Source of the DNA: Holophagales bacterium
GTDB lineage: Bacteria; Acidobacteriota; Thermoanaerobaculia; Multivoradales; UBA5704
Reading direction: 5' to 3'
NCBI GenBank assembly: GCA_031390755.1
Contig: JANMTS010000060.1
Location: 700-64,699 of the forward strand
DNA length: 64,000 bases
In this document: positions 761 to 43,403 of the stretch, piece after piece
Layout: each line of letters opens with the position of its first letter
Position numbering within the stretch: the first letter of the stretch is position 1
Translations under genes and position numbers: made by a program
Notes under the pieces: generated by a model
What the model was told of the DNA's origin: nothing
The model's input: only the letters and a program-made list of their open reading frames with translations
Databases searched by the model: none

Positions 761-830
761 GCTGTGAGTATATCCATGTGAGTTTCTGATCACCGACTGC
801 GGGAAGACGGCCGGCGGTCCCAGCGGGCGG

Positions 831-19802: not shown

Positions 19803-21026
19803 ATGGAAACGAATCGGATCCTCTTGTTCAGCCAACCGGGAACGTCCCCGCTCGCCGACCAGCTCGCGGCGATCCTCAGCGCGGCGTCGATCGCGGTCCG
19901 CAGGGTCGAGGTCGACGGCGGCGGCGCGCCAGCCGCCAGTCAGGTGGCCGACGCCCTCTCCGGCGGCCAGCCGCACTCCGTCGCCATGATGCCCGAGGAG
20001 ACCCCGGCGGGATTGGGCCACGGGCCGTGTGCCCCGTCCAGGACGACGACCCGCGAGGCCTACGCCCTGCGCCAGCTCATCGGCGAGAGCCCGGCCTTCC
20101 TGGCCGCGGTGCGGAAGATCCCGATGGTCGCGAAGTGGGATGTCGGCGTGCTGATCTGCGGCGAAACGGGGACCGGCAAGGATCTGGCCGGCCGCGCCAT
20201 CCATGCCCTGAGCCCGCGCGCGAGCCAGCCCTTCGTCCCGGTCAACTGCGGCGCGCTGCCGGTCGAGCTGGTGGAGAACGAGCTGTTCGGCCACGAGCGC
20301 TCCGCCTACACCAGCGCGGCGACCTCCTCGACCGGACTGGTGCAGGCGGCCGAAGGCGGCACGCTGTTCCTCGACGAGGTCGATTCCCTCCCTCCGGCCG
20401 CCCAGGTCAAGCTCCTCCGTTTCCTGCAGGAGAAGGAGTACCGCCCTCTGGGCTCGTCCAGGGTGCGGCAGGCGGACGTGCGCATCCTCGCCGCCACGAA
20501 CGTCGACCCGGAGAAGGCCGTCGAGGAAGGGCGACTGCGCAGCGACCTCTACTACCGGCTGAACGTGGTGCGGCTGGACCTGCCGCCGCTGCGCGACCGG
20601 CGCGAGGACGTGCCGCTTCTCGCCCGGCACTTCCTGGCCCGTCTCAACGCCCGCTTCGGGCTTTCGATCTCCGGCTTCACGGCCGAGGCGGTCCAGGCGC
20701 TGAGCCTCCACGAGTGGCCCGGCAACGTGCGGGAGCTGGCCCACGGGGTCGAGCGGGCCGTGGTGCTGTGCGGCGGCTGCCAGCGGCTCGGCCGCGAGCA
20801 TCTGCACCTGTCGCAGGGAGCCTCCCGGGAGCCCGCCGAGCGCTTCCGCGAGGCCAAGGCGCGCACCATCGCCGAGTTCGAGCGCAACTACGTGCGCACG
20901 CTGCTGACGACCCACGGCGGCAACATCACCCACGCCGCCCGCGCCGCCGGCAAGGACCGCAAGTCGTTCTGGGAGCTCATCCGGACCCACCGGATCGATG
21001 TCGCCAGCCTGCGCAGCCAGGCCTGA
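19803..21026 (+). CDS. sigma-54-dependent transcriptional activator (bEBP, Fis-type HTH)
   Basis: Start METNRILLF (ATG 19803). Walker A GETGTGKD, Walker B LFLDEVD, 'ELFGHERSAYTSA' loop, 'WPGNVRELAH', C-terminal HTH 'GGNITHAARAAGKDRKSFWELI'. Confidence 0.9.
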   Translation: METNRILLFSQPGTSPLADQLAAILSAASIAVRRVEVDGGGAPAASQVADALSGGQPHSVAMMPEETPAGLGHGPCAPSRTTTREAYALRQLIGESPAFLAAVRKIPMVAKWDVGVLICGETGTGKDLAGRAIHALSPRASQPFVPVNCGALPVELVENELFGHERSAYTSAATSSTGLVQAAEGGTLFLDEVDSLPPAAQVKLLRFLQEKEYRPLGSSRVRQADVRILAATNVDPEKAVEEGRLRSDLYYRLNVVRLDLPPLRDRREDVPLLARHFLARLNARFGLSISGFTAEAVQALSLHEWPGNVRELAHGVERAVVLCGGCQRLGREHLHLSQGASREPAERFREAKARTIAEFERNYVRTLLTTHGGNITHAARAAGKDRKSFWELIRTHRIDVASLRSQA

Positions 21027-21146
21027 CTCCCGTCCGTCCCCCGTCCCCTCCTCCGTCCGTCCCCCGTCCTTTTCCCGTTCCTCCCTCCAGGGCCTGAGTG
21101 CGCCTGGCCCTGGCCGCGGTACCGCGGTGCCTCTCCCCCGAGCCGT

Positions 21147-21228
21147 GGGGTTTTCCCCCTGGTGCCCCGCCCCAGGCAGGGCCGCGGTTTGCGCGTCCGG
21201 CCCCGCTTCCGGGCAGGGGGAAAACCCC
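21147..21228. promoter_or_regulatory. 15-bp perfect inverted repeat pair, candidate enhancer (UAS) or structured element
   Basis: ggggttttccccctg (21147-21161) and cagggggaaaacccc (21214-21228) with a 52-nt spacer. The arms lie about 45-125 nt upstream of the -24 element. Confidence 0.3.
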
Positions 21229-21271
21229 GCAGCTGTCTAGTCAAACTGTTGAAAACAAAGGGAGACACTTG

Positions 21272-21287
21272 TGGCATCTCGCTTGCT
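21272..21287 (+). promoter_or_regulatory. sigma-54 (-24/-12) promoter
   Basis: TGGCAT-CTCGC-TTGCT. GG at 21273-21274 and GC at 21285-21286 have the canonical 12-nt register. It lies 41 nt upstream of the first operon ATG (21328). Confidence 0.7.
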
Positions 21288-21327
21288 CAAGGAGGGATGC
21301 GAGCCTGAGCCATGAACCACTTCGACG

Positions 21328-22260
21328 ATGACCTTCCCCATGCCTGACCGGCGTTCGCATCACGCGTCGCTGGTCGGCCACGTGGTGGAGGATCTGACCT
21401 TCGAGCCCCTGGACGCGGGACGGCTGGCGGCCGAGATGACGGGCAGCATGACGACTACAGGCCGGCTCGCGCGGATCAAGGACGGCGGCTTCTTCGTCTT
21501 CGCCGACCTGGCAGCGGGGGACTACGGTCTCCGGCTGACCGGCGAGCGGCTCGAAGCCCGGGAGATCCCGGTCACCCTTCCGTTCGCCCCCCTGCGCCTG
21601 GCGTTTCCGGGTGACAACGAGCTGCTGGTGACGGTCGCCGCGGTCGACCCGGCGGAGCGCCGGATCACGTTCGAGCCGGCCCACCTGCCGCGGCGGATCG
21701 AGGCGGGGGCGGCGGTGCTGGCCGCGGGCCTGGAGACGACCCTCACCGCCGAGCTGGCGGCCGGCCCCGCGGTCGCCGCGCGGCTGGAGAGTGTCGGCGG
21801 CGTCGGCGGCATCGGCGGCATCGCGCCGGGAGCGCTGGTGCGCATCGTGCGCGAGCGCTCGATCCGGCTGCGGCCCGATCCCTATGCGGCCCTGCCCCCG
21901 GGGCTGACGCGCCTGGTGGGGCGGGTGACGCGAGCCGTGCCGGCCGGCCATCCGGTGGCCGGAGCCACGGTGCGCCTGCGACGGCTGGGCGAGACCGACG
22001 TGGAGATCCGGGACGTGGCCGGCGCCGCCATCGCCGTCCTTCCCTCCAGCCCGTCCGTCTCCAGGCCGCTGGGGACGGAGCGCGACGTCACCGCCCTCAC
22101 CAACGCCCGGGGCGACTATCACCTCTACTTCTCCGACGCCTTCTTCCCCGCCGCCGTGACGCTCGAGGCCAGCGCCCCGGGTCTGGCGACGGCGGTGCGC
22201 ACGGCCGATGCCGGCCGCGGCGAGCGGAGAAGGGTCGACTTCCAGATGGAGGGCTCCTGA
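21328..22260 (+). CDS. carboxypeptidase-regulatory-like (Ig/prealbumin-fold) domain protein
   Basis: 'GHVVEDLTFEPLDAGRL...TTTGRLARIKDGGFFVFADLAAGDYGLRL' and 'VGRVTRAVPAGHPVAGATVRL...TNARGDYHLYF' look like two CarboxypepD_reg-type beta-sandwiches. Confidence 0.5.
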   Translation: MTFPMPDRRSHHASLVGHVVEDLTFEPLDAGRLAAEMTGSMTTTGRLARIKDGGFFVFADLAAGDYGLRLTGERLEAREIPVTLPFAPLRLAFPGDNELLVTVAAVDPAERRITFEPAHLPRRIEAGAAVLAAGLETTLTAELAAGPAVAARLESVGGVGGIGGIAPGALVRIVRERSIRLRPDPYAALPPGLTRLVGRVTRAVPAGHPVAGATVRLRRLGETDVEIRDVAGAAIAVLPSSPSVSRPLGTERDVTALTNARGDYHLYFSDAFFPAAVTLEASAPGLATAVRTADAGRGERRRVDFQMEGS

Positions 22261-22296
22261 GACGGCATGCCGCCGGGGAGCCAGGAGGACATCGAG

Positions 22297-22527
22297 ATGC
22301 CCAAGGTCAAGAACAGCTCGTGGAGCCCGTGCCTCCTCGCCGTCGGCGAGCGGATCATCCCCATCCCGGCGCGCGGCATCGCCAAGATCACCGACGACGA
22401 GGCGGGGAGCCCCGAGGTGCAGCGGCAGATCGCCGACGGCTCGCTGATCGTCCTGCCGGAGACCGCCGCCGAAACCGCCCGCAGCGGCGGCAAGTCCACC
22501 GGAACCGCGACGACACCGCAGTCCTGA
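22297..22527 (+). CDS. small hypothetical protein (76 aa)
   Basis: AGGAGG (22282-22287) lies 9 nt before ATG 22297. MPKVKNSSWSPCLLAVGERIIPIPARGIAKITDDEAG... No family recognised. Confidence 0.45.
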   Translation: MPKVKNSSWSPCLLAVGERIIPIPARGIAKITDDEAGSPEVQRQIADGSLIVLPETAAETARSGGKSTGTATTPQS

Positions 22528-22545
22528 TGAAAGGAGCCTGAAGCC

Positions 22546-24219
22546 ATGCCTGAATATCTGTCTCCCGGAGTGTACGTCGAGGAGGTCTCCTCGGGGATCA
22601 AGCCCATCGAAGGGGTCGGAACCTCCACCGGCGCCTTCGTCGGCGGCGCCGTGAAAGGGCCGGTCGACAAGGCGGTCCTGGTCACCAACTTCACACAGTT
22701 CGTCGACACGTTCGGCAGCTTTCACCCCAACCACTACCTGGCCTACGCGGTGCGCCACTTCTTCCTCGAAGGGGGCACGCGTTGTTACGTCGTCCGCGCC
22801 TTCCACCCGACCGACATTCCCAAGCCTCTCCCGCCGGACTGGCCCTGGCCCTCGGGTGTCCTACCGGATTTCGCCTGGTCGAAGCTCAAAGAGAACAAAA
22901 CGGACACAACCAACAACAAGGAAGTCCTCCTCGTGGCGGCCAACAGCCCGGGAGCCTGGGGCAATGATCTGTCGATCAAGATCGAGAAGGCCTCGTTCGA
23001 TCCGCGCGACGCCACGGACGCGGAGATGCGCTTCAAGCTGACCGTCCTGGCAAAGCGACCGGGGGCTTCGGCGGAAGCAGTGGAGGTCTTCGACTCTCTT
23101 ACCTTGGCCGACTTCATCGGCAACACCAAGCTGCCCAACCCGAACCACGCCGAGATACGGATCAATGGCACGTCCCGCTACATCCGGGTCTCCGACCTGA
23201 CGGCCACCGACAAGCTCATGAAGCCCTTCTTCGAGCCCGAACCCACCCCGCTCAAAGAAGGCCTCGACGGCGGCGTCAAGGCCGACGGCCCACTCCTGGA
23301 GCTGGGCGACCTCACGGGAGACGAGGCGAAGCGCACCGGTCTTCATGCGTTCGACCCGGTCGACGACATCAACATCGTCGCCATCCCGGACTTGATGCAG
23401 CTCGACGCTGCTGGAGACCAAAGCGCTACGAACGCGCGCGCCGGCACGCTCGCCGGCCTCACCTACTGCCAGAACCGCAAGGACTGCTTCTTCGTCGCCG
23501 ACATGCCCAGGGGCAAGACGCCGCAGGAGGCGCTCGCCTACAAGCAGGCGCAGGCGCCGTTCAGCGGCAGCCCGTTCAACTCGTCCTTCGGCGCGCTCTA
23601 CTACCCGTGGATCTGGGTGGACGACCCGGTCACCGGCGGGCGCAAGCTCTTCCCGCCCTCGGGGGCCGTCGCCGGCTCCTACTCCGGCACCGACGTGCGG
23701 CGCGGCGTCCACAAGGCGCCCGCCGGCACCGAGGACGGCTACCTGAACGCCGCCCTCGACATCGAGCGCACCCTGACCAAGGGCGAGCACGACACGCTCA
23801 ACCCCAACGGCGTCAACGTCATCCGCAAGTTCCCCGAGGCGGGCATCGTCCTCTGGGGCGCCCGCACGCTGTCGGCCGACCCGGAGTGGAAGTACCTCAA
23901 CGTCCGGCGCCTCTTCCTGTTCCTCGAAGAGTCGATCTTCAAGGGCACCCAGTGGGTGGTCTTCGAGCCCAACGACCCCGTGCTGTGGAAGCGCATCGTG
24001 CGCAACATCAGCGCCTTCCTGCGGGTGCAGTGGAGCGAGGGCAAGCTGGTGGGCGCCAAGCCGGAGGAGGCGTTCTTCGTCAAGTGCGACGCGGAGACCA
24101 ATCCTCCGGAGTCGGTCGACCTGGGCCGCGTGATCACGGTCATCGGCGTCGCGCCCTCGAAACCCGCCGAGTTCGTCATTTTCCGCATCTCCCAGTTCCA
24201 GCCCGGGGCGGGCGACTGA
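22546..24219 (+). CDS. contractile tail sheath protein 1
   Basis: Classic N-terminus MPEYLSPGVYVEEVSSGIKPIEGVGTSTGAFVG. C-terminal 'GVNVIRKFPEAGIVLWGARTL...EAFFVKCD'. Confidence 0.95.
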   Translation: MPEYLSPGVYVEEVSSGIKPIEGVGTSTGAFVGGAVKGPVDKAVLVTNFTQFVDTFGSFHPNHYLAYAVRHFFLEGGTRCYVVRAFHPTDIPKPLPPDWPWPSGVLPDFAWSKLKENKTDTTNNKEVLLVAANSPGAWGNDLSIKIEKASFDPRDATDAEMRFKLTVLAKRPGASAEAVEVFDSLTLADFIGNTKLPNPNHAEIRINGTSRYIRVSDLTATDKLMKPFFEPEPTPLKEGLDGGVKADGPLLELGDLTGDEAKRTGLHAFDPVDDINIVAIPDLMQLDAAGDQSATNARAGTLAGLTYCQNRKDCFFVADMPRGKTPQEALAYKQAQAPFSGSPFNSSFGALYYPWIWVDDPVTGGRKLFPPSGAVAGSYSGTDVRRGVHKAPAGTEDGYLNAALDIERTLTKGEHDTLNPNGVNVIRKFPEAGIVLWGARTLSADPEWKYLNVRRLFLFLEESIFKGTQWVVFEPNDPVLWKRIVRNISAFLRVQWSEGKLVGAKPEEAFFVKCDAETNPPESVDLGRVITVIGVAPSKPAEFVIFRISQFQPGAGD

Positions 24220-24243
24220 GGCGAGCACAAGGAGAGACCCGCC

Positions 24244-24681
24244 ATGCCACGGAGAGCGACCGATCCCTATGCCTCGTTCAACTTCCTCCTGGAGATCGAC
24301 GGCATCGCCAAGGCCGGATTTTCGGAGGTCACCGGCCTCAACGCCGAGGCCAACATCATCGAGTACCGGGAGGGCGGCGACAAGGCCAACACCATGCGCA
24401 AGCTGCCGGGCCTCGAGAAGTACGGCAACGTGACGCTCAAGCGCGGCGTCAGCCAGGACCCCGAGCTGTTCACCTGGCACAAGACCGTGATCGACGGCGA
24501 CATCGTGCGCGACGAGGCGATGTCGATCGTGCTGCTCGACGAGAAGCGCCAGGAGGCGGCGCGCTGGAACCTGCTCCAGGCCTGGGCGGTGAAGTGGGTG
24601 GGGCCGGACCTCAAGGCCGGCGCCAACGAGATCGCCATCGAATCCCTCGAGCTCGCCCATGAGGGCGTGGAGCGCCAGTGA
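24244..24681 (+). CDS. tail tube protein 1 (T4 gp19-like)
   Basis: MPRRATDPYASFNFLLEIDGIAKAGFSEVTGL...YGNVTLKRGV...ESLELAHEG. Confidence 0.9.
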   Translation: MPRRATDPYASFNFLLEIDGIAKAGFSEVTGLNAEANIIEYREGGDKANTMRKLPGLEKYGNVTLKRGVSQDPELFTWHKTVIDGDIVRDEAMSIVLLDEKRQEAARWNLLQAWAVKWVGPDLKAGANEIAIESLELAHEGVERQ

Positions 24682-25061
24682 TGTTGCAGACCGAGTTCGA
24701 GGTCACGCTGCCCAAGGGGTACGTCGACAAGGACGGCAACCTGCACCGCACGGGGATCATGCGTCTCGCCAACGCGCGCGACGAGATCGCGCCGCTCCAG
24801 GACCCGCGGGTGCAGCGCAATCCGGCCTACCTGACGGTGATCCTGCTGTCGCGGGTGCTCATCAAGCTGGGCGAGGTGCGCGAGGTCACGCCGGCCACGA
24901 TCGAGGGGCTGTTCTCGGCCGACTTCGCCTATCTCCAGGATTTCTACGGCCGGATCAACGCCAACGGGCACAGCGCCGTGACGATCGAATGCCCGGAGTG
25001 CGAGGCGCGCTTCCAGGTCACGCAGGATCTCCTGGAAGGAGGGCCGGACGCGGGGGGGTAG
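24681..25061 (+). CDS. tail assembly chaperone-like protein (zinc-ribbon C-terminus)
   Basis: ATG 24681 overlaps the tube stop (TGATG). It sits immediately after the sheath-tube pair, as P2 gpE does. 'CPECEARF'. It ends at a G7 tract followed by TAG. Confidence 0.55.
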   Translation: MLQTEFEVTLPKGYVDKDGNLHRTGIMRLANARDEIAPLQDPRVQRNPAYLTVILLSRVLIKLGEVREVTPATIEGLFSADFAYLQDFYGRINANGHSAVTIECPECEARFQVTQDLLEGGPDAGG

Positions 25062-25228
25062 CTTGCTATCCCCTGGACCAGGCGGCCAGGGAGGTAGCGT
25101 ACATCGCCTACTACTTTCATTGGCCGCGCGAGGAGATCCTCGACCTGCCCCACCGTGAGCGGCGGCGATGGGTGGAGGAGATCGCGCGGATCAACCAGGA
25201 GATCAACGAGGCGGCCGAGCGGGCCTGA
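25058..25228 (+). CDS. -1-frame extension ORF lacking its own start codon
   Basis: Own reading of the -1 frame from 25058: VACYPLDQAAREVAYIAYYFHWPREEILDLPHRERRRWVEEIARINQEINEAAERA*. No ATG/GTG/TTG occurs in that frame before GTG 25172. Confidence 0.45.
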   Translation, partial: VACYPLDQAAREVAYIAYYFHWPREEILDLPHRERRRWVEEIARINQEINEAAERA

Positions 25229-25266
25229 CAGGCTTGATCGAGCCGCCGGAGAGGGAGACCCAGGCC

Positions 25267-26949
25267 ATGGAGGCGAGAGCCCCGGGAGCACAGATCCGCG
25301 AGGTCGAGCTGGCGCCGCCGGCCTTCCTCCAGCTCAGCGTGGCCGGGTTCGTCGGCCAGGCCGAGCGCGGACCGATGCACAGCCCTCAGCTGCTGACGAG
25401 CTGGGGGCAGTTCACCGACGTCTTCGGCGGCTTCACGGGGCGTTCGTTCCTGGCCTACGCCGTGTTCGGCTTCTTCGCCAACGGCGGCCGGCGCTGCTGG
25501 GTGGTACGCACGGCGCACTGGCAGTCGCAGACGGCGCGACTCGATCTCCTCGATCCCGCCGGGACCTCCCGGATCGCCGTCCATGCGCTCGATCCCGGCG
25601 GCTGGGGGAACGCGATCGAGGTGGACTGCCGCCCGGTCCCCGACAAACGGATTCCGGGCGGCTTCCGCCTGGCCTTCCGTTACCGTCCCGGAGGCCGGAC
25701 GGTGCGGGAGGAGATCTTCGACGACCTCTCCCCCGATCCGGAGCACAAGCGGTATTTCGTGCGGCTCGTCAACGGCGATCCTCCGGCCGAGAGCTATGTC
25801 GAGAAGGCCCGGCAGGGGTGCTCGACCCTGGTGCGGGTCGAGGCGCTCGGGGCCGGTTCGCCGGCGGTCGTCACAGGGATCGCGGGCGTCAATGGCGCGC
25901 CGCTCGCCAGGGGCGAGGACGGTCCGTGGCGCCTCACCGTGGCCCACTATGTGGGATACGAGGACGGCGTGCTCTTCCGGCCGCAGGGCCTGCCGAAGGG
26001 GACGCTGGGCGGGCTCGCCGCGTTCGAGCGCATCTCCGAGATCGGCACCGTGGCGATCCCCGACCTGATCCTCCCCGAGCTGATCCCGCCGGGCGACGCC
26101 GTTCCCACCCGGGGACCGGTCTTCGCCGGCGCCCCGGCCGGCAGCCTGGAGGGGATGCTCGAAGGGCAGCGCGAGATGCTGCGCCACTGCCGCCGCAGGG
26201 GCGAGCGGTTCGCCCTGCTCGACGCGCCGCGCGGCGCCGAGCCCGGGCGCGGGGTGCGCCCGGTCGAGGACTGGGCGGGCAAGCTTTCCGATCTTCCCGA
26301 GGCGCGCGACGGCGCGCTCTACCACCCCTGGCTCCGCCATCGCGCCGCGGACTTCGGCGGGCGCGACCTGCTGATCCCGCCGTGCGGCCACGTGGCCGGC
26401 ATCTACGCCCGCAGCGAGGAGCGGCGCGGCGTGGGCAAGGCGCCGGCCAACGAGATCCTCCAGGGCGCCGTGAGCCTGGAGCTGTGTCTCGACGACGCCC
26501 GCCAGGCGCTGGTCAATTCCCTGGGCGTGAACTGCCTGCGCGTCTTCCCCGGCCGCGGCCTGCGCGTCTGGGGCGCGCGCACCCTCAGCCGCGACCCGCA
26601 GTGGAGCTACGTCAACGTGCGCCGGGTGGCCCTGGCGATCGTCAAGCAGATCCTGGTCCGCCTGCGCTGGACGGCGTTCGAGCCCAACGGCCCCGGACTG
26701 TGGCGGGCGGTCACCGCGACGCTGACCCTCTTCCTGCTCCAGCTCCTGGAGAGCGGCGCCCTCGCCGGAGCCTCGGCGGCCGAGGCCTTCTTCGTCCAGT
26801 GCGACGAGGAGACGAACCCGCCCGAGCTCACCGGGCAGGGCCAGATGCTGGCGCGGATCGGCTTCGCGCCGGCCCGGCCCGCCGAGTTCGTGGTGGTCAC
26901 CCTCCGCCGGACCGCCGAATCGCTGGTGGTCACGGAGCAGGGGCTCTAG
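25267..26949 (+). CDS. contractile tail sheath protein 2 (paralog)
   Basis: Start MEARAPGAQIREV (ATG 25267, preceded by ggagaggga). 'GVNCLRVFPGRGLRVWGARTL...EAFFVQCD' parallels sheath 1. Confidence 0.9.
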   Translation: MEARAPGAQIREVELAPPAFLQLSVAGFVGQAERGPMHSPQLLTSWGQFTDVFGGFTGRSFLAYAVFGFFANGGRRCWVVRTAHWQSQTARLDLLDPAGTSRIAVHALDPGGWGNAIEVDCRPVPDKRIPGGFRLAFRYRPGGRTVREEIFDDLSPDPEHKRYFVRLVNGDPPAESYVEKARQGCSTLVRVEALGAGSPAVVTGIAGVNGAPLARGEDGPWRLTVAHYVGYEDGVLFRPQGLPKGTLGGLAAFERISEIGTVAIPDLILPELIPPGDAVPTRGPVFAGAPAGSLEGMLEGQREMLRHCRRRGERFALLDAPRGAEPGRGVRPVEDWAGKLSDLPEARDGALYHPWLRHRAADFGGRDLLIPPCGHVAGIYARSEERRGVGKAPANEILQGAVSLELCLDDARQALVNSLGVNCLRVFPGRGLRVWGARTLSRDPQWSYVNVRRVALAIVKQILVRLRWTAFEPNGPGLWRAVTATLTLFLLQLLESGALAGASAAEAFFVQCDEETNPPELTGQGQMLARIGFAPARPAEFVVVTLRRTAESLVVTEQGL

Positions 26950-26958
26950 GAGAGGACG

Positions 26959-27405
26959 ATGGCGCGCCGAAGCACCGATCCGTACGCGGGCTACCGCTTC
27001 CTCCTCCAGCTCGGGGTGCTGCCCGCGGCCGGCTTTGCCGAGTGCACCGGCCTCCAGGCCGAGACCAAGGTCTTGGACTACGTCGAGGGCGGGCGCAACG
27101 GCACGACCCTCAAGTTCCCGGAGGCCACCGGCTACTCCAACGTCGTGCTCAAGCGGGGGGTCGGCCTCTCGAACGAGCTTCTCTACTGGCAGCTCGACGC
27201 CGCGCACGGGCTCTTCGTTCTCAACCCCCGGCTGGTCGTCAACACCGCCATCGTGCTCCAGGACGAGCGCGGCCGGCCCGTCCGCTTCTGGCTGCTGAAG
27301 CGGGCCTTTCCGGTCAAGTGGACAGGACCGGACCTCAAGGCGGGGGCGAACGAGGTCGCCATCGAGTCGCTGGAGCTCGCCCATGAGGGGATCGTGCCGC
27401 TATGA
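26959..27405 (+). CDS. tail tube protein 2 (paralog)
   Basis: MARRSTDPYAGYRFLLQLGVLPAAGFAECTGLQAE...YSNVVLKRGV...ESLELAHEG. Confidence 0.9.
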   Translation: MARRSTDPYAGYRFLLQLGVLPAAGFAECTGLQAETKVLDYVEGGRNGTTLKFPEATGYSNVVLKRGVGLSNELLYWQLDAAHGLFVLNPRLVVNTAIVLQDERGRPVRFWLLKRAFPVKWTGPDLKAGANEVAIESLELAHEGIVPL

Positions 27406-27974
27406 GCGCCTCCTCGGCCCTGGGCGACGTCACCCGCACGCTCGAGGATCTGCTCACCCGCGAGCAGCGGCCCGCCGGGCTGTTCGAGGTCTCCCTGCGC
27501 TCGCCCGCCGACGAGACGGTCGAGCCGTCGATGAAGCCCAAGATCAACGTCTATCTCTTCCGGGTGGAGGAGAACGCCAACGCCAAGAACCGGCCCTGGC
27601 CGGTCACCGGGAGCGAATCGCGGCGCTATCCGCCGCTGGCGCTCGACCTGTTCTACGTGCTCACGCCCTACGCCGACCGGCTGGTGGACGAGCAGACGGT
27701 GCTCGGCGAAGCCATGCGCGTGCTGCACGAGAACACGGTCGTGGAGGGCGACGCCCTGCGCGGCTCCCTGCGCCACTCGGGCGAGGATCTCAAGATCGAC
27801 CTCGGCCGCTGCGACGTCGAGAGCCTCACCCGCATCTGGAACGCGTTCAATCAGCCGTACCGCCTGTCCGTCTGCTACGAGGTCCGGGCCGTGCTCGTGG
27901 ATGCCGTGCGCGAAATCCGCACGGCCCGCGCCGGGGAGACCGCGGAGGAATATGAGAGTCTCGACGATCGTTGA
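27402..27974 (+). CDS. DUF4255 (Afp16/Pvc16-like) tail terminator/cap protein
   Basis: ATGA overlap with tube 2. 'INVYLFRVEENANAKN...PPLALDLFYVLTPY' is the typical DUF4255 signature. Confidence 0.85.
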   Translation: MSASSALGDVTRTLEDLLTREQRPAGLFEVSLRSPADETVEPSMKPKINVYLFRVEENANAKNRPWPVTGSESRRYPPLALDLFYVLTPYADRLVDEQTVLGEAMRVLHENTVVEGDALRGSLRHSGEDLKIDLGRCDVESLTRIWNAFNQPYRLSVCYEVRAVLVDAVREIRTARAGETAEEYESLDDR

Positions 27975-30177
27975 GGCGCCATCCGCGGTTGGCCCCGCGG
28001 TTGGCTCCGCGGTAGGTGATACCGGCGATCTTGACGAGCGCGGGCACCTGCTCGCGGCGCTCGACCGGATCGACGTCCTGCTGCGCCTGGCCGCGACCCG
28101 GCGGCGGCGCGACCCGTCGGCGGCCGAGGCCGACGGCTTCCGCGGCCTCTACATCTCGGAGGAGGAGATCCGGCGGCTGTGCGAGCCGGCCCCGCCCCCG
28201 GCTCCCCGCTCGGGTGAACGCTCGGAGGAAGAAGAGGATCTGCTCGCGGCGCTCGCCCTCGCCGAGGACGATCTGGCGCGGCACACCGCCGCCGCCCTGG
28301 CCGCCGGGGTGCGGCTCCCCCTCGCCGAGCTGGCGGAGCGCTTTGCGCTGTCGCCGTTCGACGTCGACGCGCTGCTGCTGTGCCTGGCGCCGGAGCTCGA
28401 CAGCCGGTGCGAGACGCTGTACGCCTACCTTCAGGACGACGTCACCCGCCGCCGCCCGACCGCCGGCCTGATCCTCTCCCTGCTCGCGCCGTCGCGCGGC
28501 GAGCGGCTGGCGCTCCATGCCCGGCTCGCGGCCGGAGCGCCGCTGCTGCGCCACGGCCTGCTGGTCTGGGTCGCGACCGAGGACGAGGCTCCGTTCCCCT
28601 CCCGCCCGCTGCGTCTCGACGACCGCATCGTCCACGTCCTCCTCGGCCTGGATCTCCCGGACGAGCGGCTCGCCCCGTTCGCGCGCCGGATCGCGCCGCG
28701 GGCTCCGCTCCGCGAGGTGATGCTGCCCGCCGGGCTCGGACCGGAGGTGCTGCGCGCCCGGACCGGCGGCGGCCCCGCCCGGCTGGTGTTCCAGGGGGAG
28801 CCCGGCGCCGGCCGGCGGCTCGCCGCCGAGGCCCTGTGCGCGGAGGCCGGCCTCGGGCTGCTGGAGGTGGACACGCCGGCCCTGCTCGCCCAGGGGTCCG
28901 AGATCCGCGCCCTCGCCGCGCGGCTGCCGCGCGAGGCGGCTCTCCTCGGCTGCGCCGTCTATCTCGACGGCGCCGAGGCGCTCCTGGACGACGTAGCGGC
29001 CCCGGCCGCCCGCGAGGTGCTCGGCGCCCTGGAGGGCTTCCCCGGCGCGCTCGTCCTCGGCACGGCCCGGCCCTGGCCCCCGGGCCGGCTGACCGAGGCC
29101 GGGCTGCTGCGGATCGACTTCCCGGCTCCCGACCCCGGGCAGCGGCGGGCGCTGTGGCGGGCGGCCGTCCGCCGCCACGGTCTCGCCGCCATCCCGGAGG
29201 CCGGCCTCGACGCCCTGGCCGAGCGCTATGCCTTCAACGCCGGGAGCATCGACCGCGCCGCGGCCGAGGCCGCCTGCGCGGGGGCCGGTCCTGAGGTCGG
29301 CGATCTCGACCGGGCCTGCCGCGCCCAGACCGGCGGCGTCCTCGCCGCGCTCGCGCGCCGGATCCCGACGCTCTCCACCTGGGACGACCTGGTGCTGCCG
29401 GCTGGCAGCCTGTCCCAGCTCCGCGAGCTGTGCGCCCACGTCGAGCACCGCCGGCAGGTCTTCGAGGGCTGGGGCTTCGAGCGCAGGATCGCGCGCGGCA
29501 AGGGGATCGCCGCCCTGTTCGCCGGTCCCTCGGGCGCCGGCAAGACCCTGGCCGCCGAGGTCGTGGCCGGGGCGCTGGGGCTGGAGCTGTTCCGGATCGA
29601 TCTCTCCGCGATCGTCTCCAAGTACATCGGGGAGACCGAGAAGAACCTCGCCCGCATCTTCACCGCGGCCGAGGAGGGTCACGCCGTCCTCTTCTTCGAC
29701 GAGGCCGACGCGATCTTCGGCAAGCGCTCTCAAGTCAAGGACGCCCACGACCGCTACGCCAACATTGAGGTCAACTACCTGTTGCAGCGCCTGGAGGATC
29801 ACCCCGGCGTGGTGATCCTGGCCAGCAACTTCCGCAAGAACATCGACGAGGCCTTCACGCGCCGCCTGCGCTTCGTGGTCGAGCTGCCGCTGCCTGACGA
29901 GGCTCTGCGCCGCGATCTCTGGAGGAAGCTCTTTCCCCCGGAGGCGCCGCTCGCGGCCGGCGTCGACTTCGAGTTCCTGGCCCGCCGCTTCAAGATCACC
30001 GGCGGCAGCATCCGCAACATCGTCCTCCATGCCGCCTTCCTGGCCGCGGCGGCCGGCGCCCCCGTGGGCATGGAGCACGTGCTGCGCTCCACCCGGCGCG
30101 AGCTCGCCAAGAGCGGCCATCTCTGCCTGCGCGCGGACTTCGAGCCCTACGCCGACCTGGCCGGAGAGGAGTCATGA
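27952..30177 (+). CDS. AAA+ ATPase (Afp15-like)
   Basis: ATG 27952 follows ggagga. C-terminal AAA module with 'FAGPSGAGKTLAAE', 'VLFFDEADAIFGKR', 'ILASNFRKNIDEAFTRRL'. Confidence 0.9.
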   Translation: MRVSTIVEAPSAVGPAVGSAVGDTGDLDERGHLLAALDRIDVLLRLAATRRRRDPSAAEADGFRGLYISEEEIRRLCEPAPPPAPRSGERSEEEEDLLAALALAEDDLARHTAAALAAGVRLPLAELAERFALSPFDVDALLLCLAPELDSRCETLYAYLQDDVTRRRPTAGLILSLLAPSRGERLALHARLAAGAPLLRHGLLVWVATEDEAPFPSRPLRLDDRIVHVLLGLDLPDERLAPFARRIAPRAPLREVMLPAGLGPEVLRARTGGGPARLVFQGEPGAGRRLAAEALCAEAGLGLLEVDTPALLAQGSEIRALAARLPREAALLGCAVYLDGAEALLDDVAAPAAREVLGALEGFPGALVLGTARPWPPGRLTEAGLLRIDFPAPDPGQRRALWRAAVRRHGLAAIPEAGLDALAERYAFNAGSIDRAAAEAACAGAGPEVGDLDRACRAQTGGVLAALARRIPTLSTWDDLVLPAGSLSQLRELCAHVEHRRQVFEGWGFERRIARGKGIAALFAGPSGAGKTLAAEVVAGALGLELFRIDLSAIVSKYIGETEKNLARIFTAAEEGHAVLFFDEADAIFGKRSQVKDAHDRYANIEVNYLLQRLEDHPGVVILASNFRKNIDEAFTRRLRFVVELPLPDEALRRDLWRKLFPPEAPLAAGVDFEFLARRFKITGGSIRNIVLHAAFLAAAAGAPVGMEHVLRSTRRELAKSGHLCLRADFEPYADLAGEES

Positions 30178-31796
30178 GGGGGGTCAGGAGGAAGACCCGG
30201 CGCCCGGCCGCGCTCGGTTTCGCCCGCGGCATCCTCGCGCGGCACCGGCCGCTGGCCCGGCCGCGCCCGGTCGCGAGGCTGGGCTCGCCGTTCTCGTGGG
30301 TGCATCCGCTGCTGGCGCGGGGAGGGCGGCCGGCGGGCGCCGGTGCCGGCCGGCTTCTCCGGACGGTCGTCCGGCAGGAGCACACGCGGCGTGACACGGT
30401 GCGGACGGTGCAGACGGTGCAGACGGTGCAGACGGTGCGAACGTTGCAGACGCTGCGGGAAACCAGGACGGTCGTGGTGCCTGGGAGGGTGGGCCCTCAC
30501 CCCCCGGCCCCCTCTCCCGGTCCGCCCGAGCCCTCCCGCCCCGGGAGAGGGGGAGACTTGCGGGTTCCGGGTGTCTCAGGGCGCGTCGCCGTGCTGGCGG
30601 CTGCCGGCGGGGTGGGCCGCCGGGCCGCCCGTTTCGGGCACGGAGGCGGCGCTATCGGTACCTGGAAGGTTGGAGACGCCCCGAGGTTCCGGGATCCGGT
30701 TAGGTTTTCGATGACGGACCGGGGCGTCTCTACCCGCACATCAGCCGGCATCGAGACGCGACTCTCAACCGCGTACCGCCACGTAGAGACGGCCCGGTCC
30801 GTCTACACCAACCTCACCGGGTCTCGAAACTCCGGGCCGTCTCTCCTCTCCGTCACCACGATCGTGCCGGGCGCGCACCACAACGGCCCGACCCTGCGTT
30901 TCGAGGGCGTTCCCTGCACCCCAACCGAAATCCAGACCCGCATCCAGCCGCGAATCCCAACCGCCTACCGCCACGTAGAGACGGCCCAGTCCGTCTACAC
31001 CAACCTCACCGGGTCCCGAGGCTCCGGGCCGTCTCTCCTCTCCGTCACCACGATCGTGCCGGGCGCGCACCACAACGGCTCGACCCTGCGTTTCGGAGGC
31101 GTGAACGGCTCGACCCTGCATCCTGCGGTCGTGAAGAGCACGACCCTGCGTTTCGGGCGCACAGGCGGCGGCATCGATTCCTGGAAGGTTGGAGACGCCC
31201 CGGCGTTTCGGAACCCGGTCAGGTTGGTGATGACGGACTGGGGCGTCTCTACCCAAACATCGACAAGCAGCCAGACCGGAATCCAGGCCGGGACCCAGAC
31301 CGCCTTCGCGGCAGCCGGATTCCGGTCCGGAAAGACTGTCGGCATGCCAATCGCCCCGAGCGGGACGGGCGGCAACGCCCAGCCCCGCCGCCATCGGTCC
31401 CCGGGAGGGAGGGGGCGCCCCTCTCCCGGGGCGGGCGGACTCGGGCGGACCGGGAGAGGGGACGGGGGTGAGGACCCCCACCCCTGGGCACCGGTGGCCG
31501 CCCCCGTGCTGGCCCCGGCGCCGCGGCCCGCAAGCCGAGCCACGGCCGCCGCCACGTCCTCGACGGTATCTACAACCCCAACGTCTGCGCCGGCCGCAGC
31601 CACCTCACCGGCAGCTCCCGCCCTCGGCGAGCGGCAGGTGGTCGAGCTGGTCCGCAAGGAGCTGCGCGGCGCCCTCGCACCGGTGCTGGCGGCCCGGTCC
31701 CAACCGGACGGCGGCCGGGACGCCCACCTCGCCGACCGGGTCGTCTCCAACCTCGAACGCCGCCTCCTCGTCGAACGGGAGCGCCGCGGGCTCTGA
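30174..31796 (+). CDS. hypothetical protein at the tape-measure position, carrying an internal repeat block
   Basis: ATGA overlap with the ATPase stop. The frame stays open for 540 codons. It sits directly upstream of the LysM tube initiator and gpD hub. C-terminus 'ADRVVSNLERRLLVERERRGL'. The function is assigned by position only. Confidence 0.4.
   Translation: MRGVRRKTRRPAALGFARGILARHRPLARPRPVARLGSPFSWVHPLLARGGRPAGAGAGRLLRTVVRQEHTRRDTVRTVQTVQTVQTVRTLQTLRETRTVVVPGRVGPHPPAPSPGPPEPSRPGRGGDLRVPGVSGRVAVLAAAGGVGRRAARFGHGGGAIGTWKVGDAPRFRDPVRFSMTDRGVSTRTSAGIETRLSTAYRHVETARSVYTNLTGSRNSGPSLLSVTTIVPGAHHNGPTLRFEGVPCTPTEIQTRIQPRIPTAYRHVETAQSVYTNLTGSRGSGPSLLSVTTIVPGAHHNGSTLRFGGVNGSTLHPAVVKSTTLRFGRTGGGIDSWKVGDAPAFRNPVRLVMTDWGVSTQTSTSSQTGIQAGTQTAFAAAGFRSGKTVGMPIAPSGTGGNAQPRRHRSPGGRGRPSPGAGGLGRTGRGDGGEDPHPWAPVAAPVLAPAPRPASRATAAATSSTVSTTPTSAPAAATSPAAPALGERQVVELVRKELRGALAPVLAARSQPDGGRDAHLADRVVSNLERRLLVERERRGL
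30396..30458 (+). repeat. 7 x 9-bp tandem repeat (acggtgcag-like)
   Basis: The seven units are acggtgcgg, acggtgcag x3, acggtgcga, acgttgcag and acgctgcgg, encoding TVRTVQTVQTVQTVRTLQTLR. Confidence 0.85.
30495..31473. repeat. composite roughly 979-bp repeat block bounded by about 60-bp inverted hairpin repeats
   Basis: Left end 30495-30553 is cctcaccccccggccccctctcccggtccgcccgag...ccgggagaggggg. Its reverse complement recurs at 31413-31473. Internal direct repeats: X (30661-30735 / 31180-31254, offset 519 nt) and Y (30766-30910 / 30957-31102, offset 192 nt). Confidence 0.65.
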
Positions 31797-31814
31797 CCCG
31801 CCGGAGACGACGCC

Positions 31815-32456
31815 ATGGCCCTCGAAAAGCTTCGCATCAAAAACCTCGACAGCACAGGGGATTCCATCGACGTCCTCTTCAATCCCGCGGAGTACACCTT
31901 CGAGGACGCCAACGTGTGGGAGGAACAGAAGCACCCGAAACAGAAGTCCGGCACCCAGTTCGTCGGCCGCAGCCTCAAGAAGCTCTCCCTGGAGCTGTTC
32001 TTCGACACCTACGAGGCGGGCGACGACGTGCGCAGGGCGACGAACAAGATCGCCGCCCTCCTCATCCCCATCCCGCAGCAGACACGGCCGCCCCGATGCG
32101 AGATCGTCTGGGGGCCGTCCAAAGAGCTATCGAAAGACTCGCTCTTCGTCTGGGTTCTGGAGAGCCTGAAACAGCAGTTCACCCTCTTCCGCGCCGACGG
32201 CACGCCGGTCCGGGCGCGCCTCACCGTCTCCTTCAAGGAATACATCGAGCCCTCGAAGGAGGAGAAGAGCGACCCCAAGCGGAATTCGTTCCCGGCCAAG
32301 ACCCACACCGTGCATGCCGGCGAGACCCTCGCCGGCATCGCCGGCACGCTCTGGGGCCGGCCCGCCGACTGGCGCATCCTGGCCAAAGCCAACAACATCG
32401 ACAACCCGCTGCGGCTAGAACCAGGCCGCGTGCTCACCGTTCCGGCGATCCCCTGA
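31815..32456 (+). CDS. tube-initiator-like protein with C-terminal LysM domain (Afp7-like)
   Basis: 'IDVLFNPAEYTFEDAN...LSLELFFDT' followed by LysM 'HTVHAGETLAGIAGTLWGRPADWRILAKANNIDNPLRLEPGRVLTVP'. Confidence 0.85.
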   Translation: MALEKLRIKNLDSTGDSIDVLFNPAEYTFEDANVWEEQKHPKQKSGTQFVGRSLKKLSLELFFDTYEAGDDVRRATNKIAALLIPIPQQTRPPRCEIVWGPSKELSKDSLFVWVLESLKQQFTLFRADGTPVRARLTVSFKEYIEPSKEEKSDPKRNSFPAKTHTVHAGETLAGIAGTLWGRPADWRILAKANNIDNPLRLEPGRVLTVPAIP

Positions 32457-32461
32457 GGGAG

Positions 32462-33532
32462 ATGCTCATGGCCGATCCCTCTCTCTCCAGCGTCCACGAT
32501 GCGCCCACCTTCAAGGTGCGCCTCGCCGGCCAGGATCTGCCGACCGCGGCAGCCCTCGACGTGCTCAGCGTGGAGGTCTCCACCCATGTCGAGGGCTCCG
32601 ACATGTTCGCCGTGACCTTCAGCAACTGGGACCAGAACCGCCAGGAGGTCACCTGGACGGAGCGCGACCTGCTGCGCGAAGGCGCGGAGCTGGAGATCCT
32701 GGCCGGCTACGCCCACTCTCTCCAGAGCCTGATGAAGGGCGAGGTGACGGCCCTGGAGCCCGAGTTCCCGTACGACCGGACGCCCACCCTGACGCTGCGC
32801 GGCTACGACCGCCTTCACCGTCTGCGCCGCGGGCGCAAGACCCGCTCGTTCGTGAAGATGAAGGACAGCGAGGTCGCCGGGCGCATCGGCCGCGACCTGG
32901 GGCTCAAGGTCGAGGCCGACGACTCCCAGGTGGTCCACGAGTACCTGCTCCAGAACAACCAGAGCGACGTCGACTTCCTGGTCGAACGGGCGCGCCGCAT
33001 CCGCTTCGAGGTCAAGGTCGAGGACAGGACGCTGCTGTTCCGCAAGACGCCCGACGACCGCACCCAGGTGTTGACCCTCAAGTACGGGCTTACGCTGCGC
33101 AGCTTCTGCCCGCGCCTCAACACCCTGGCGCAGGTCAGCGAGGTGACGGTCCAGGGCTGGAGCCCGAAGCAGCGCGAGGCCATCGCCGGCAAGGCCGGCA
33201 CCGGCGACGCCAAGGCCTCGGGCGGCACCCTGGGGGCCACGCTCGCCGAGCGCGCGTTCTTCGCCGCCAAGGCCGCGGTCGTGGACACGCCGGTCGCTTC
33301 GGCCCAGGAGGCGACGCAGATCGCCCGCGCGCGTTTGAACGAGCTGGCCATGGAGGCGCTGACCGGCGAAGGGCTGGCCGTGGGCGAGCCCGCCCTGCAA
33401 GCCGGCAAGGTGGTGGAGCTGGCCGGCCTCGGCAAGCGTTTCAGCGGCCTGTACTACGTCACCTCGGCCGTCCACCGGATCGACCACGAGGGCTACAGCA
33501 CCGCCTTCACCGTGGCGAGGAACGCGGCATGA
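32462..33532 (+). CDS. late control gene D-like baseplate hub protein
   Basis: Start MLMADPSL (ATG 32462). 'FKVRLAGQDL...VLSVEVSTHVEGSDMFAVTF', 'NQSDVDFLVERARRIRFEV', 'GLYYVTSAVHRIDHEGYSTAFTV'. Confidence 0.85.
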   Translation: MLMADPSLSSVHDAPTFKVRLAGQDLPTAAALDVLSVEVSTHVEGSDMFAVTFSNWDQNRQEVTWTERDLLREGAELEILAGYAHSLQSLMKGEVTALEPEFPYDRTPTLTLRGYDRLHRLRRGRKTRSFVKMKDSEVAGRIGRDLGLKVEADDSQVVHEYLLQNNQSDVDFLVERARRIRFEVKVEDRTLLFRKTPDDRTQVLTLKYGLTLRSFCPRLNTLAQVSEVTVQGWSPKQREAIAGKAGTGDAKASGGTLGATLAERAFFAAKAAVVDTPVASAQEATQIARARLNELAMEALTGEGLAVGEPALQAGKVVELAGLGKRFSGLYYVTSAVHRIDHEGYSTAFTVARNAA

Positions 33533-34188
33533 CGCTCTTCGACCTGCTCACCGACCAGACGGGCCTGGAGGCGCGGCGCGGGCGCGTCCACGGCGCGGTC
33601 GTGGGCATCGTCACCAACAACAAGGACCCGGAGACGCTCGGCCGGGTGAAGGTCAAGTTCCCCTGGCTCACCGACGCCGACGAGAGCCACTGGGCGCGGG
33701 TGGCGACGTTCATGGCCGGCAAGGAGCGCGGCGGCTGGTTCCTGCCCGAGGTGGACGACGAGGTGGTGGTGCTCTTCGAGCACGGCGACGTCCGCTTCCC
33801 CTTCGTCGTCGGCGCGCTCTGGAACGGCGTCGACGCCGCGGCCTACACCAACGCCGACGGCAAGAACAACGTGCGCGCCATCACCTCGCGCAGCGGCCAC
33901 GAGCTGATCTTCGACGACGACTCGAAGAAGGGGCGCCTGGAGATCCACACCAAGGCCGGGCACCGCATCCTGCTCGACGACTCCACCGGCTCCGAGACGA
34001 TCCTGATCGAGGACAAGTCGGGCAACAACAGGATCGAGATGGACGCGGTCAAGGGCTCGATCGCCGTCGAGGCGCAGCTCAAGCTCAGCCTCAAGGCGAA
34101 GACGGTCGAGATCGAGGCGGACATCGCGCTCAAGCTCAAGTCCGGCGCCACCCTGGAGATCCAGGGCACGCTGGTGAAGATCAACTGA
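33529..34188 (+). CDS. gpV/gp5-type spike protein (VgrG-like OB fold + beta-helix)
   Basis: 'GIVTNNKDPETLGRVKVKFPWL...HWARVATFMAGKERGGWFLPEVDDEVVVLFEHGDVRFPFVVGALWNG', then a beta-helical repeat tail. Confidence 0.85.
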   Translation: MTLFDLLTDQTGLEARRGRVHGAVVGIVTNNKDPETLGRVKVKFPWLTDADESHWARVATFMAGKERGGWFLPEVDDEVVVLFEHGDVRFPFVVGALWNGVDAAAYTNADGKNNVRAITSRSGHELIFDDDSKKGRLEIHTKAGHRILLDDSTGSETILIEDKSGNNRIEMDAVKGSIAVEAQLKLSLKAKTVEIEADIALKLKSGATLEIQGTLVKIN

Positions 34189-34194
34189 AAGGAG

Positions 34195-34479
34195 ATGCCC
34201 TTGCCCCCCGCAGCGCGCGTCGGAGATCCCAGCGGCCATCCCGGAGTCGTCACCGGCCCGGGCATCCCCACGGTGCTCATCGCCGGGATGCCGGCGGCCA
34301 CGCTCGGCGACCTCCACACCTGCTCGTTTCCGCCGCCGGCCGTGCATCCGCCCACCCCGATCGCCAAGGGGAGCGCCACGGTGCTCATCGGCGGCAAGCC
34401 GGCGGCGCGGGTGGGCGACATGGCCGGCTGCGGCGCGCCGATCGTGGCCGGCGCCTTCACCGTGCTGATCGGAGGCTAG
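34195..34479 (+). CDS. PAAR domain spike-tip protein
   Basis: 'PAARVGD...GMPAATLGDLHTC...GKPAARVGDMAGCG'. The start may be TTG 34201, given the GGAG at 34191-34194. Confidence 0.9.
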   Translation: MPLPPAARVGDPSGHPGVVTGPGIPTVLIAGMPAATLGDLHTCSFPPPAVHPPTPIAKGSATVLIGGKPAARVGDMAGCGAPIVAGAFTVLIGG

Positions 34480-34488
34480 GGAGACATC

Positions 34489-34881
34489 ATGAGCAAGGAT
34501 TTCCTCGGCAGGGGTTGGACGTTCCCGGTCCAGGTGGACGCCAACGGCGCGATCGCGCTGTCCGTGCAGGAAGAGGACGTGCGCGAGGCGATCCGCGTGA
34601 TCCTCCTCACCAGCCGCGGCGAGCGGCCGATGCGGCCCGACTTCGGCGCCGGTCTCCACGACTATGTGTTCGAGACGCTGAGCGCCACCAACGTCGGCGC
34701 GATCCAGGCGGAGGTCCGGCGCGCCCTGGTCGACTGGGAGCCGCGCATCGAGCTGCTGTCGGTGGACGCCCGGCCCGACTCCGGCGACGTCGGCCGCTTC
34801 CTGCTCGACGTGGACTACAGGGTGCGCTCCACGAACACGCGCTTCAACCTGGTGTTCCCCTTCTATCTGGGAGGCCGGTGA
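34489..34881 (+). CDS. GPW/gp25-family baseplate wedge protein
   Basis: 'FLGRGWTFPV...EDVREAIRVILLTSRGERPMRPDFGAGLHDYVFE'. Confidence 0.9.
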   Translation: MSKDFLGRGWTFPVQVDANGAIALSVQEEDVREAIRVILLTSRGERPMRPDFGAGLHDYVFETLSATNVGAIQAEVRRALVDWEPRIELLSVDARPDSGDVGRFLLDVDYRVRSTNTRFNLVFPFYLGGR

Positions 34882-37805: not shown

Positions 37806-37819
37806 AGGAGAGCGAAGCC

Positions 37820-43388: not shown

Positions 43389-43403
43389 CCTTCTGGAGGG
43401 ACG

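Follow-up and report, generated by a model that had tools for sequence, protein, structure and literature searches.

A conserved putative sigma-54 switch in front of an extracellular contractile injection system operon of a Holophagales bacterium

Background

How is the operon of an extracellular contractile injection system (eCIS) switched on in its host? The question is raised by a 64-kb stretch of DNA from a Holophagales bacterium (contig JANMTS010000060.1 of assembly GCA_031390755.1, positions 700 to 64,699; the whole stretch is called the window below, and coordinates are those of the window), in which a gene for a bacterial enhancer-binding protein (bEBP) is followed by a -24/-12 element and a complete eCIS operon of about 26 kb. 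A preliminary description of the window had proposed that the operon is under dedicated sigma-54/bEBP control and had pointed to an unusual SAYTSA loop in the bEBP. The regulation of eCIS has been called unclear in reviews, and most eCIS loci are silent in culture (PMC10598620). The comparative analysis reported here gives good support to the view that the arrangement is a real, useful and mechanistically standard sigma-54 switch, with one local oddity, the in-frame loss of its first gene.

Results and discussion

The -24/-12 element and the sigma-54 machinery of the host

The element in question is the following.

21272..21287, + strand: sigma-54 -24/-12 promoter TGGCAT-ctcgc-TTGCT (TGGCATCTCGCTTGCT), identified by motif scan and conserved register; predicted transcription start at about 21298

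The element lies where the preliminary description had placed it and has the GG/GC register of sigma-54 promoters, the two doublets being exactly 10 nt apart and upstream of a gene. Nothing else in the window matches TGGCAY-N5-TTGCW, for which shuffled sequence predicts 0.02 occurrences, and a scan allowing one mismatch added just one site, at 61631.

The source organism is uncultured, and its genome is a 7.6-Mb metagenome-assembled genome (MAG) of 68% G+C from freshwater sediment. It carries a single intact copy of rpoN, encoding a 492-aa protein with canonical region I and RpoN box (PF04552, 218 bits). Genome-wide, 21 strict sites were found against approximately 2.4 expected by extrapolation from the chance rate of the window; all of them are situated in lower-GC stretches and several stand beside other bEBP genes. 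Such an excess, with several sites next to bEBP genes, indicates that canonical sigma-54 promoters are in use in this organism. The genome contains 25 bEBP-like open reading frames (ORFs), whose readable loops are mostly GAFTGA or mild variants of it. Strict sites elsewhere in the genome, for example at C65:12482, C132:110229, C107:26715 and C183:62895, offer a starting set for its sigma-54 regulon.

A chance match at 21272-21287 was considered and rejected in view of the 0.02 expectation, the 21 genomic sites and the conservation in related loci described below.

The gene upstream of the operon encodes a probable sigma-54 activator

The gene preceding the promoter and its recognizable parts are listed below.

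19803..21026, + strand: bEBP gene, 407 aa (P0002), with N-terminal stub, AAA+ sigma-54 interaction domain, lid and C-terminal Fis-type helix-turn-helix (HTH); Pfam, structure search and AlphaFold2
19821..19907, + strand: vestigial beta-alpha-beta unit (residues 7-35), remnant of an aspartate-less receiver; AlphaFold2 and alignment with relatives
20160..20180, + strand: Walker A GETGTGK; columns G120-K126 invariant in 120 homologues
20280..20300, + strand: ELFGHER, directly before the loop
20301..20318, + strand: L1 loop S-A-Y-T-S-A at the GAFTGA position; sequence, a 96.6%-identical relative and frequencies in 120 clusters
20364..20384, + strand: Walker B LFLDEVD; D191 invariant and E192 nearly invariant in 120 homologues
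20715..20738, + strand: WPGNVREL, by motif position
20868..20987, + strand: C-terminal HTH DNA-binding region; HTH_8 (P0001 residues 378-403), model helices 375-381 and 386-395

The Pfam matches to Sigma54_activat (PF00158, E 1.9e-62) and AAA_lid_14 (E 2.1e-22) agree with the motif coordinates, which bears out the earlier assignment of the gene as a sigma-54 activator with Walker A, Walker B and WPGNVREL; the HTH_8 match falls below its cut-off and is weighed later. Among solved structures ZraR (1OJL) is the nearest, with an E value of 2.9e-75 across residues 92-389. The AlphaFold2 model, built with 52 aligned homologues, has a mean predicted local distance difference test score (pLDDT) of 82.8, and its AAA+ core and C-terminal helices are confident. 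All Walker, sensor and arginine-finger columns that are invariant among the 120 homologues are kept. Taken with the conservation presented in the next section, these features indicate that the 407-aa protein is probably a functional, sensor-less bEBP dedicated to activating the eCIS operon downstream.

The cassette recurs in related loci

The order activator, two GGGG-A/T-CCCC boxes, -24/-12 promoter and eCIS operon is shared by seven other acidobacterial loci, and in six other loci an orthologous activator stands directly upstream of the same operon with unrelated upstream flanks. The nearest named relatives of the locus are MAGs of Holophagales, Thermoanaerobaculia and Pyrinomonadaceae, all Acidobacteriota. 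Their -24/-12 elements are as follows.

L002, metagenome: TGGCACagcctGTGCT
L006, Holophagales MAG: TGGCACagcccGTGCT
L003 (with L004 and L007), Thermoanaerobaculia MAG: TGGCACgaccgTTGCT
L019 and a sibling contig: TGGCACcccgcTTGCT
L020: cGGCACgacggTTGCA
L009, Pyrinomonadaceae MAG: TGGCATgtcggTTGCT, a perfect TGGCAT-N5-TTGCT

The register is held at the orthologous position in the seven related loci, including L009 and L020, where the surroundings cannot be aligned. Thus the proposal of dedicated sigma-54/bEBP control is upheld by the presence of one intact rpoN and by the seven other loci in which the same arrangement is found with its GG/GC register preserved; the element at 21272-21287 is a conserved putative sigma-54 promoter, from which RpoN-dependent transcription would begin at about 21298.

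In a maximum-likelihood tree the seven activators form one clade (support 100/99), and all of them are eCIS-linked where the contig permits the check; the contig of a further orthologue, L005, stops approximately 340 nt past the gene. L009 represents a more distant operon: its first gene is 41% identical, and the bEBP encoded just upstream is 35% identical, with a different N-terminal domain and HTH. In a phylum-wide search the first eCIS gene was detected in 3 of 401 acidobacterial genomes, hence the lineage is sporadic. A scan of metagenome contigs with the alignment of the first eCIS gene recovered no relatives.

Some features of individual loci were recorded separately. In L009, a sigma-70-family gene (20-1111) lies just upstream of the 522-aa bEBP gene (1693-3261), whose product has an unassigned N-terminal domain of approximately 170 aa. 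In L019, a gene for a 1300-aa TIR plus protein-kinase protein (563-4465) lies just upstream of the gene for a full-length, 470-aa eCIS-linked activator, and the annotated start of the small first gene (6418) falls inside the -24 element (ATGGCAC).

Candidate enhancer boxes and the proposed mechanism

Between the activator gene and the promoter two candidate binding sites were identified.

21141..21161, unstranded: distal candidate enhancer box AGCCGTGGGGTTTTCCCCCTG, at about -145; inverted repeat I1, conserved in L002, L006, L003, L019 and L020
21214..21234, unstranded: proximal candidate enhancer box CAGGGGGAAAACCCCGCAGCT, an inverted copy of the distal box, at about -76; evidence as for the distal box

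The boxes of the GTGGGG-(A/T-rich 4-5)-CCCC(AC) type in these five loci accompany activators whose HTH sequence is nearly identical to that of the window. The box-to-box spacing is 67-69 bp, and the centre of the proximal box lies 51-54 bp upstream of the GG doublet (window, L002 and L003). In L003 both boxes are in direct orientation. In L009, where the HTH is different, two direct copies of another motif, CCGGCAAAAGTTTTCCGG (3476-3528), are situated 85-135 bp upstream of the promoter. Boxes that vary together with the DNA-binding domain are what would be expected of cognate enhancer sites, and it is proposed that the HTH of the activator binds them.

Two other identities of the boxes were discarded. 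Mobile palindromes of the genome (repetitive extragenic palindromic sequences or miniature inverted-repeat transposable elements) do not fit, since GGGG[AT]4CCCC occurs nowhere else in the 7.6 Mb; neither do arms of an RNA hairpin or terminator, given the direct orientation in L003 and the negative result of a + strand terminator scan.

In the proposed mechanism, the C-terminal HTH would bind the GTGGGG-(A/T)4-5-CCCC(AC)-type boxes at about -145 and -76, where the activator would assemble into an AAA+ ring. ATP hydrolysis and the L1 loop (S-A-Y-T-S-A) would then remodel the RNA polymerase-sigma-54 complex at TGGCAT-N5-TTGCT, so that transcription would begin at about 21298 and read into the 26-kb operon. 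The activator gene, two boxes and promoter would form a self-contained cassette, and expressing the activator could switch such an operon on in a laboratory host or in a native isolate.

The promoter might also be genuine and yet be fired by another of the approximately 25 bEBPs of the genome, many of which have canonical GAFTGA loops, while the product of the adjacent gene regulates something else or merely modulates the promoter. It is known that bEBPs without DNA specificity can activate from solution when present at high concentration. Such cross-activation is nonetheless very unlikely, given the gene adjacency kept across seven loci with unrelated flanks, the change of the upstream boxes with the type of HTH, as in L009, and the uniqueness of the boxes to this locus in the genome.

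Read-through offers another way of transcribing the operon. The scan of 21027-21340, between the activator gene and the operon, detected no + strand terminator, and transcripts of the activator gene could therefore continue into the operon; a sigma-70-type promoter might also have escaped recognition, since the scan that revealed no sigma-70 consensus promoter in the same interval used the E. coli consensus, which acidobacterial housekeeping promoters may not fit. That the operon is transcribed mostly in these ways and that the sigma-54 motif is incidental is highly improbable, as the motif is unique in the window against an expectation of 0.02, its register is kept in the non-alignable surroundings of L009 and L020, and the region lacks a sigma-70 consensus. 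Control through the candidate boxes and the -24/-12 promoter by the adjacent activator remains the preferred explanation.

Three further elements of the intergenic region were noted. Right after the activator stop codon there is a C-rich direct repeat block (21029-21088; CCCGTCCGTCCCCCGTCC..., three overlapping copies), to which nothing aligned in L002 and L003. A perfect 14-bp palindrome, CCGCGGTACCGCGG (21114-21127), precedes the distal box; its right half, CGCGGTG, is the only part common to L002 and L006. Between the proximal box and the -24 element, GTCAAACTGTTG (21250-21261) matches the integration host factor (IHF) core consensus WATCAANNNNTTR with one mismatch, and since the relatives are GC-rich at this position the IHF-like site is specific to this genome.

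The SAYTSA loop is a variant within a loose clade

The preliminary description had set SAYTSA against a nearly invariant GAFTGA. The loop is indeed encoded at 20301-20318, but near invariance does not apply to this group of activators. Residue frequencies were determined in the 120 protein clusters closest to the activator. Position 1 is occupied by G in 84 clusters, E in 14, S in 13, A in 8 and D in 1; position 3 by F in 77 and Y in 43; position 5 by G in 92, S in 16, D in 10, and N and T in 1 each. Only A2, T4 and A6 are fixed (120/120), and SAYTSA keeps all three. Since GAFTSA (n=10) and GAYTSA (n=5) occur among the clusters, SAYTSA combines residues that circulate in the clade. The sister activators P0006 and P0007, both eCIS-linked, have SAYTGA, and the L009 activator has GAFTGA. 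Judged by this comparison, SAYTSA is ordinary variation in the activator clade. The loop of acidobacterial bEBPs is thus far freer at positions 1, 3 and 5 than the textbook GAFTGA, which matters to anyone who judges the sigma-54 dependence of bEBP homologues by that motif.

The residues found here are also tolerated in well-studied proteins. The loop of HrpS is always GAYTGA and is active, the Tyr limiting output, as a Y to F change lifts it by 50% (PMC3105312); the activator of the window shares this Tyr. Every one of the 19 possible replacements of the second Gly (G266) has been tried in NorR, and the protein remained active with S, D, N, Q, C and M, many others being non-functional (PMC2941729). 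The Ser at the fifth loop position corresponds to G266S, one of the six active substitutions; in contrast to the NorR variants, which are engineered single changes in a GAF-regulated protein, it is natural, is combined with S1 and Y3, and has no regulatory domain to bypass. According to a regulon survey in Clostridiales, variants with GSFTGA, GAYTGA or GAFSGA likewise retain their sigma-54 targets (PMC6615313). It is therefore probable, on these parallels, that SAYTSA is a working GAFTGA variant with somewhat lowered output.

The gene is under purifying selection

Independent contigs were compared with the window. A Logan contig of the same sample is identical to it over 19700-20377. A 320-nt contig from another study (X4; the X5 contig appears to be the same data) is 96.6% identical, with 11 differences in 320 nt over 20059-20378, and keeps SAYTSA. 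Eight of the ten listed differences are synonymous (ratio of nonsynonymous to synonymous polymorphism, pN/pS, of about 0.09), among them two within loop codons, TAC>TAT (Y169) and GCG>GCC (A172); the amino-acid replacements are R104Q and Q181H. Because the loop codons of a diverging population have changed while the residues stayed the same, the gene is not decaying. This purifying selection and the retention of every catalytic motif contradict the alternative, raised in the preliminary description, of a decayed paralogue. The identical same-sample contig and the diverged relative with the same residues also dispose of the idea that SAYTSA is an assembly error.

Several observations weigh against a fully active and typical switch. 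The four nearest orthologues have AAFTGA, so that either three of the six loop residues changed on the window branch or two reverted, and the exact S1+Y3+S5 combination was found in the window lineage alone: only one of the 25 bEBP-like ORFs has it in this genome, and no other sequence of the 120 clusters does. The D and N variants of NorR G266 have lower ATPase activity and form weaker open complexes (PMC2941729), and the loop Tyr limits HrpRS output (PMC3105312); the SAYTSA loop could accordingly be strongly attenuating. The HTH_8 match of the activator is weak (E 1.2e-3; score 19 bits, Pfam threshold 22 bits). The cassette's first gene, conserved elsewhere and about 97 codons long, has been lost here by in-frame deletion, which makes the circuit of the window a departure from the widespread cassette and not a typical example of it. 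In G251, from another acidobacterial family, a related operon is accompanied by a BTAD regulator (L013 8636-9739, - strand) and has no -24/-12 element; sigma-54 control is thus not obligatory for the machine, and the upstream regulator module is exchangeable. Finally, the interval 21042-21285, with the boxes and the promoter, is uncovered by the Logan contigs examined, so its sequence is that of the assembly.

The differences in the loop, the NorR substitutions that abolish function and the deletion of the first gene could together mean that the activator has lost productive contact with sigma-54 and persists as a mere DNA-binding repressor or placeholder, the operon being silent or cryptic and the loss of the first gene a part of the decay. 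This is unlikely. Ser is tolerated at the second Gly, a Tyr at position 3 occurs naturally in an active protein, and A2, T4 and A6 are kept; a pN/pS of 0.09, with the loop codons changing only synonymously in the diverged relative, does not suggest decay. The promoter still matches GG/GC perfectly and is nearer to the consensus than those of L002 and L006, and the operon reading frames that were sampled are open and match Pfam families. A working activator, possibly of reduced output, therefore remains the preferred interpretation.

The N-terminal domain is a vestige

The preliminary description had found no obvious receiver Asp signature in the N-terminal region, and this was confirmed. In the AlphaFold2 model the N-terminus forms a strand (7-10), a helix (16-27) and a second strand (32-35) with a pLDDT of about 70, followed by a disordered linker (39-78). 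The stub aligns with the start of a receiver-like domain of approximately 125 aa in 470-aa relatives, which themselves, as read from the alignment, have no acidic pair, carry S or L where the phospho-acceptor would be and show P instead of the conserved Lys. The receiver acidic pocket, Asp and Lys of NtrC-type response regulators are likewise absent from the activator.

Of the members of the eCIS-linked clade, P0006 retains the whole domain, the activators of the window and of L006 as well as P0003 retain a stub, and P0004, P0005 and P0007 have none of it; orthologues without it are 336-346 aa long. This distribution points to repeated loss. In functional terms the activator has no sensor, its N-terminal domain being a vestige, and control is thus most likely exerted by way of activator abundance or a trans partner rather than by phosphorylation.

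Comparison with known systems

Sigma-54/bEBP control is well established for type VI secretion systems (T6SS), with VasH in Vibrio cholerae and Sfa2/Sfa3 together with RpoN in the H2- and H3-T6SS of Pseudomonas aeruginosa. The locus of the window resembles these clusters in that a bEBP gene lies in or beside a contractile-injection cluster whose structural genes would be driven from a -24/-12 promoter. It differs in its target, an extracellular phage-tail-like system of the Afp/PVC type with an AAA+/WHD ATPase and not a cell-anchored one, and in the activator, which stands upstream of a single operon promoter and has no regulatory domain.

With AAA+ and HTH parts only and no sensory domain, the activator resembles PspF and HrpR/HrpS, which are controlled in trans by PspA and HrpV, although its closest solved sequence relative is ZraR and not PspF. 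In the psp system an anti-activator is the product of the gene that comes first after the sigma-54 promoter. In the window genome, unlike PspF and HrpRS, the small first gene, a possible partner in the related cassettes, is deleted.

Some bEBP-like proteins that deviate from GAFTGA have left sigma-54 altogether: NtrC of Rhodobacter capsulatus and of Caulobacter, TyrR, and PexR of Myxococcus. Their loop is lost or destroyed and they act at sigma-70 promoters, whereas the activator of the window keeps A-x-T-x-A beside a conserved -24/-12 promoter.

No link between eCIS and sigma-54 was found in the searchable literature, and the main texts of eCIS surveys and reviews, including Chen et al. 2019, are silent on it; Chen et al. 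2019 and two of the reviews make no reference to sigma factors of any kind. The text of Geller et al. 2021 (eCIStem) names GerE, BTAD and RfaH as eCIS regulators and takes up neither sigma-54 nor promoters or enhancer sites. Even so, its supplementary files 5 and 13 record 49 occurrences of Sigma54_activat ('Shell', odds ratio 1.59) among eCIS loci of 4 phyla, with Pelobacter propionicus Ppro_0378 and Leptothrix cholodnii Lcho_3032 as examples. These catalogue entries are Sigma54_activat plus HTH_8 genes at the edge of an eCIS locus, and the likeness to the activator of the window consists in domains and position. The earlier statement that sigma-54 control is not a described feature of eCIS loci consequently holds for the main texts but not for this supplement. 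What the window adds is no new mechanism; known regulatory logic, as in the T6SS with VasH/Sfa, would be extended to extracellular injection systems, the association of the genes being already on record in a published supplement.

The eCIS operon and its deleted first gene

The genes downstream of the promoter are listed below.

21312..21347, + strand: 11-codon remnant MNHFDDDLPHA of the ~97-aa first gene; comparison with L002 11391-11684 and L003 11237-11536
21340..22260, + strand: first eCIS operon gene, CarboxypepD_reg-like, 306 aa; Pfam, start set at MPDRR by orthologue alignment
22267..47785, + strand: rest of the eCIS operon, with two sheath genes, two tube genes, frameshift chaperone, Pvc16-like gene and AAA+/WHD ATPase (Pfam)
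22267..47785, + strand, further genes: tape-measure candidate, CIS_tube-LysM, spike, two Baseplate_J genes, fibre-like gene and unassigned large proteins (Pfam)

The gene content is that of an Afp/PVC-like eCIS. Pfam matches comprise two Phage_sheath_1, Phage_T4_gp19, CIS_tube-LysM, Phage_base_V (spike OB), two Baseplate_J and WHD plus AAA, and relatives also have Pvc16_N. Among the ORFs scanned over 21328-47785, none matched a capsid family or a T6SS-specific family in Pfam.

The promoter does lie upstream of the operon, as first described, but the start of the 306-aa gene had to be moved: orthologue alignment places it at ATG 21340 and not at 21328, and the remnant ORF comes before it. The remnant retains the original start region, with its acidic DDD run, and a stop codon overlapping ATG 21340 (ATGCCTGA), as in the relatives. 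In two more samples from the study that yielded the genome, contigs cross its junction and show no difference.

The protein lost from the window belongs to a large family. An exhaustive HMMER search with a profile built from L002 and L003 recovered at least 2,295 representatives of 50%-identity clusters at E <= 0.001, 412 of them at E <= 1e-10, and most of the best 150 of the 2,295 are approximately 95-110 aa long. A word-indexed search recovered the protein itself alone, and no match was found in Pfam. Its AlphaFold2 model is confident (pLDDT 91.6); comparison with PDB folds gave no significant match (best E 0.096, TM 0.37), the weak matches being all winged-helix.

Randomly sampled family members stand behind a short bEBP gene and a -24/-12-like element, and ahead of eCIS genes where the contig continues. 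The elements of the sampled cassettes are as follows.

L015/L016: -24/-12-like element TGGTACgccacTTGCT
L017/L018: -24/-12-like element cGGCATggtccTTGCc
L014: weaker -24/-12-like element TGGCATagggtTTGTt

One could suppose that the ~97-aa protein is a trans partner of the activator, an anti-activator or co-factor providing feedback as PspA does on PspF, and that the Ser of the loop is a compensating, output-lowering change that followed the deletion. This combined proposal is improbable; if it were true, the window would be a natural experiment in rewiring an eCIS switch.

Minor observations concern the small gene in other loci. In L006 (3770-3800) it has an extra G in comparison with the near-identical L002 (ggactcggctcgag vs GGACTCGCTCGAG), the sign of either a frameshift or an error in sequencing. 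The more distant cassettes of L017 (2553-2568), L015 (319-334) and L014 (252-267) have another dyad in common, AGGACAAAATTGTCCT or AGGATAAATTTGTCCT, located just after the activator stop codon, and a Peptidase_S8 gene comes next after the small gene of L017.

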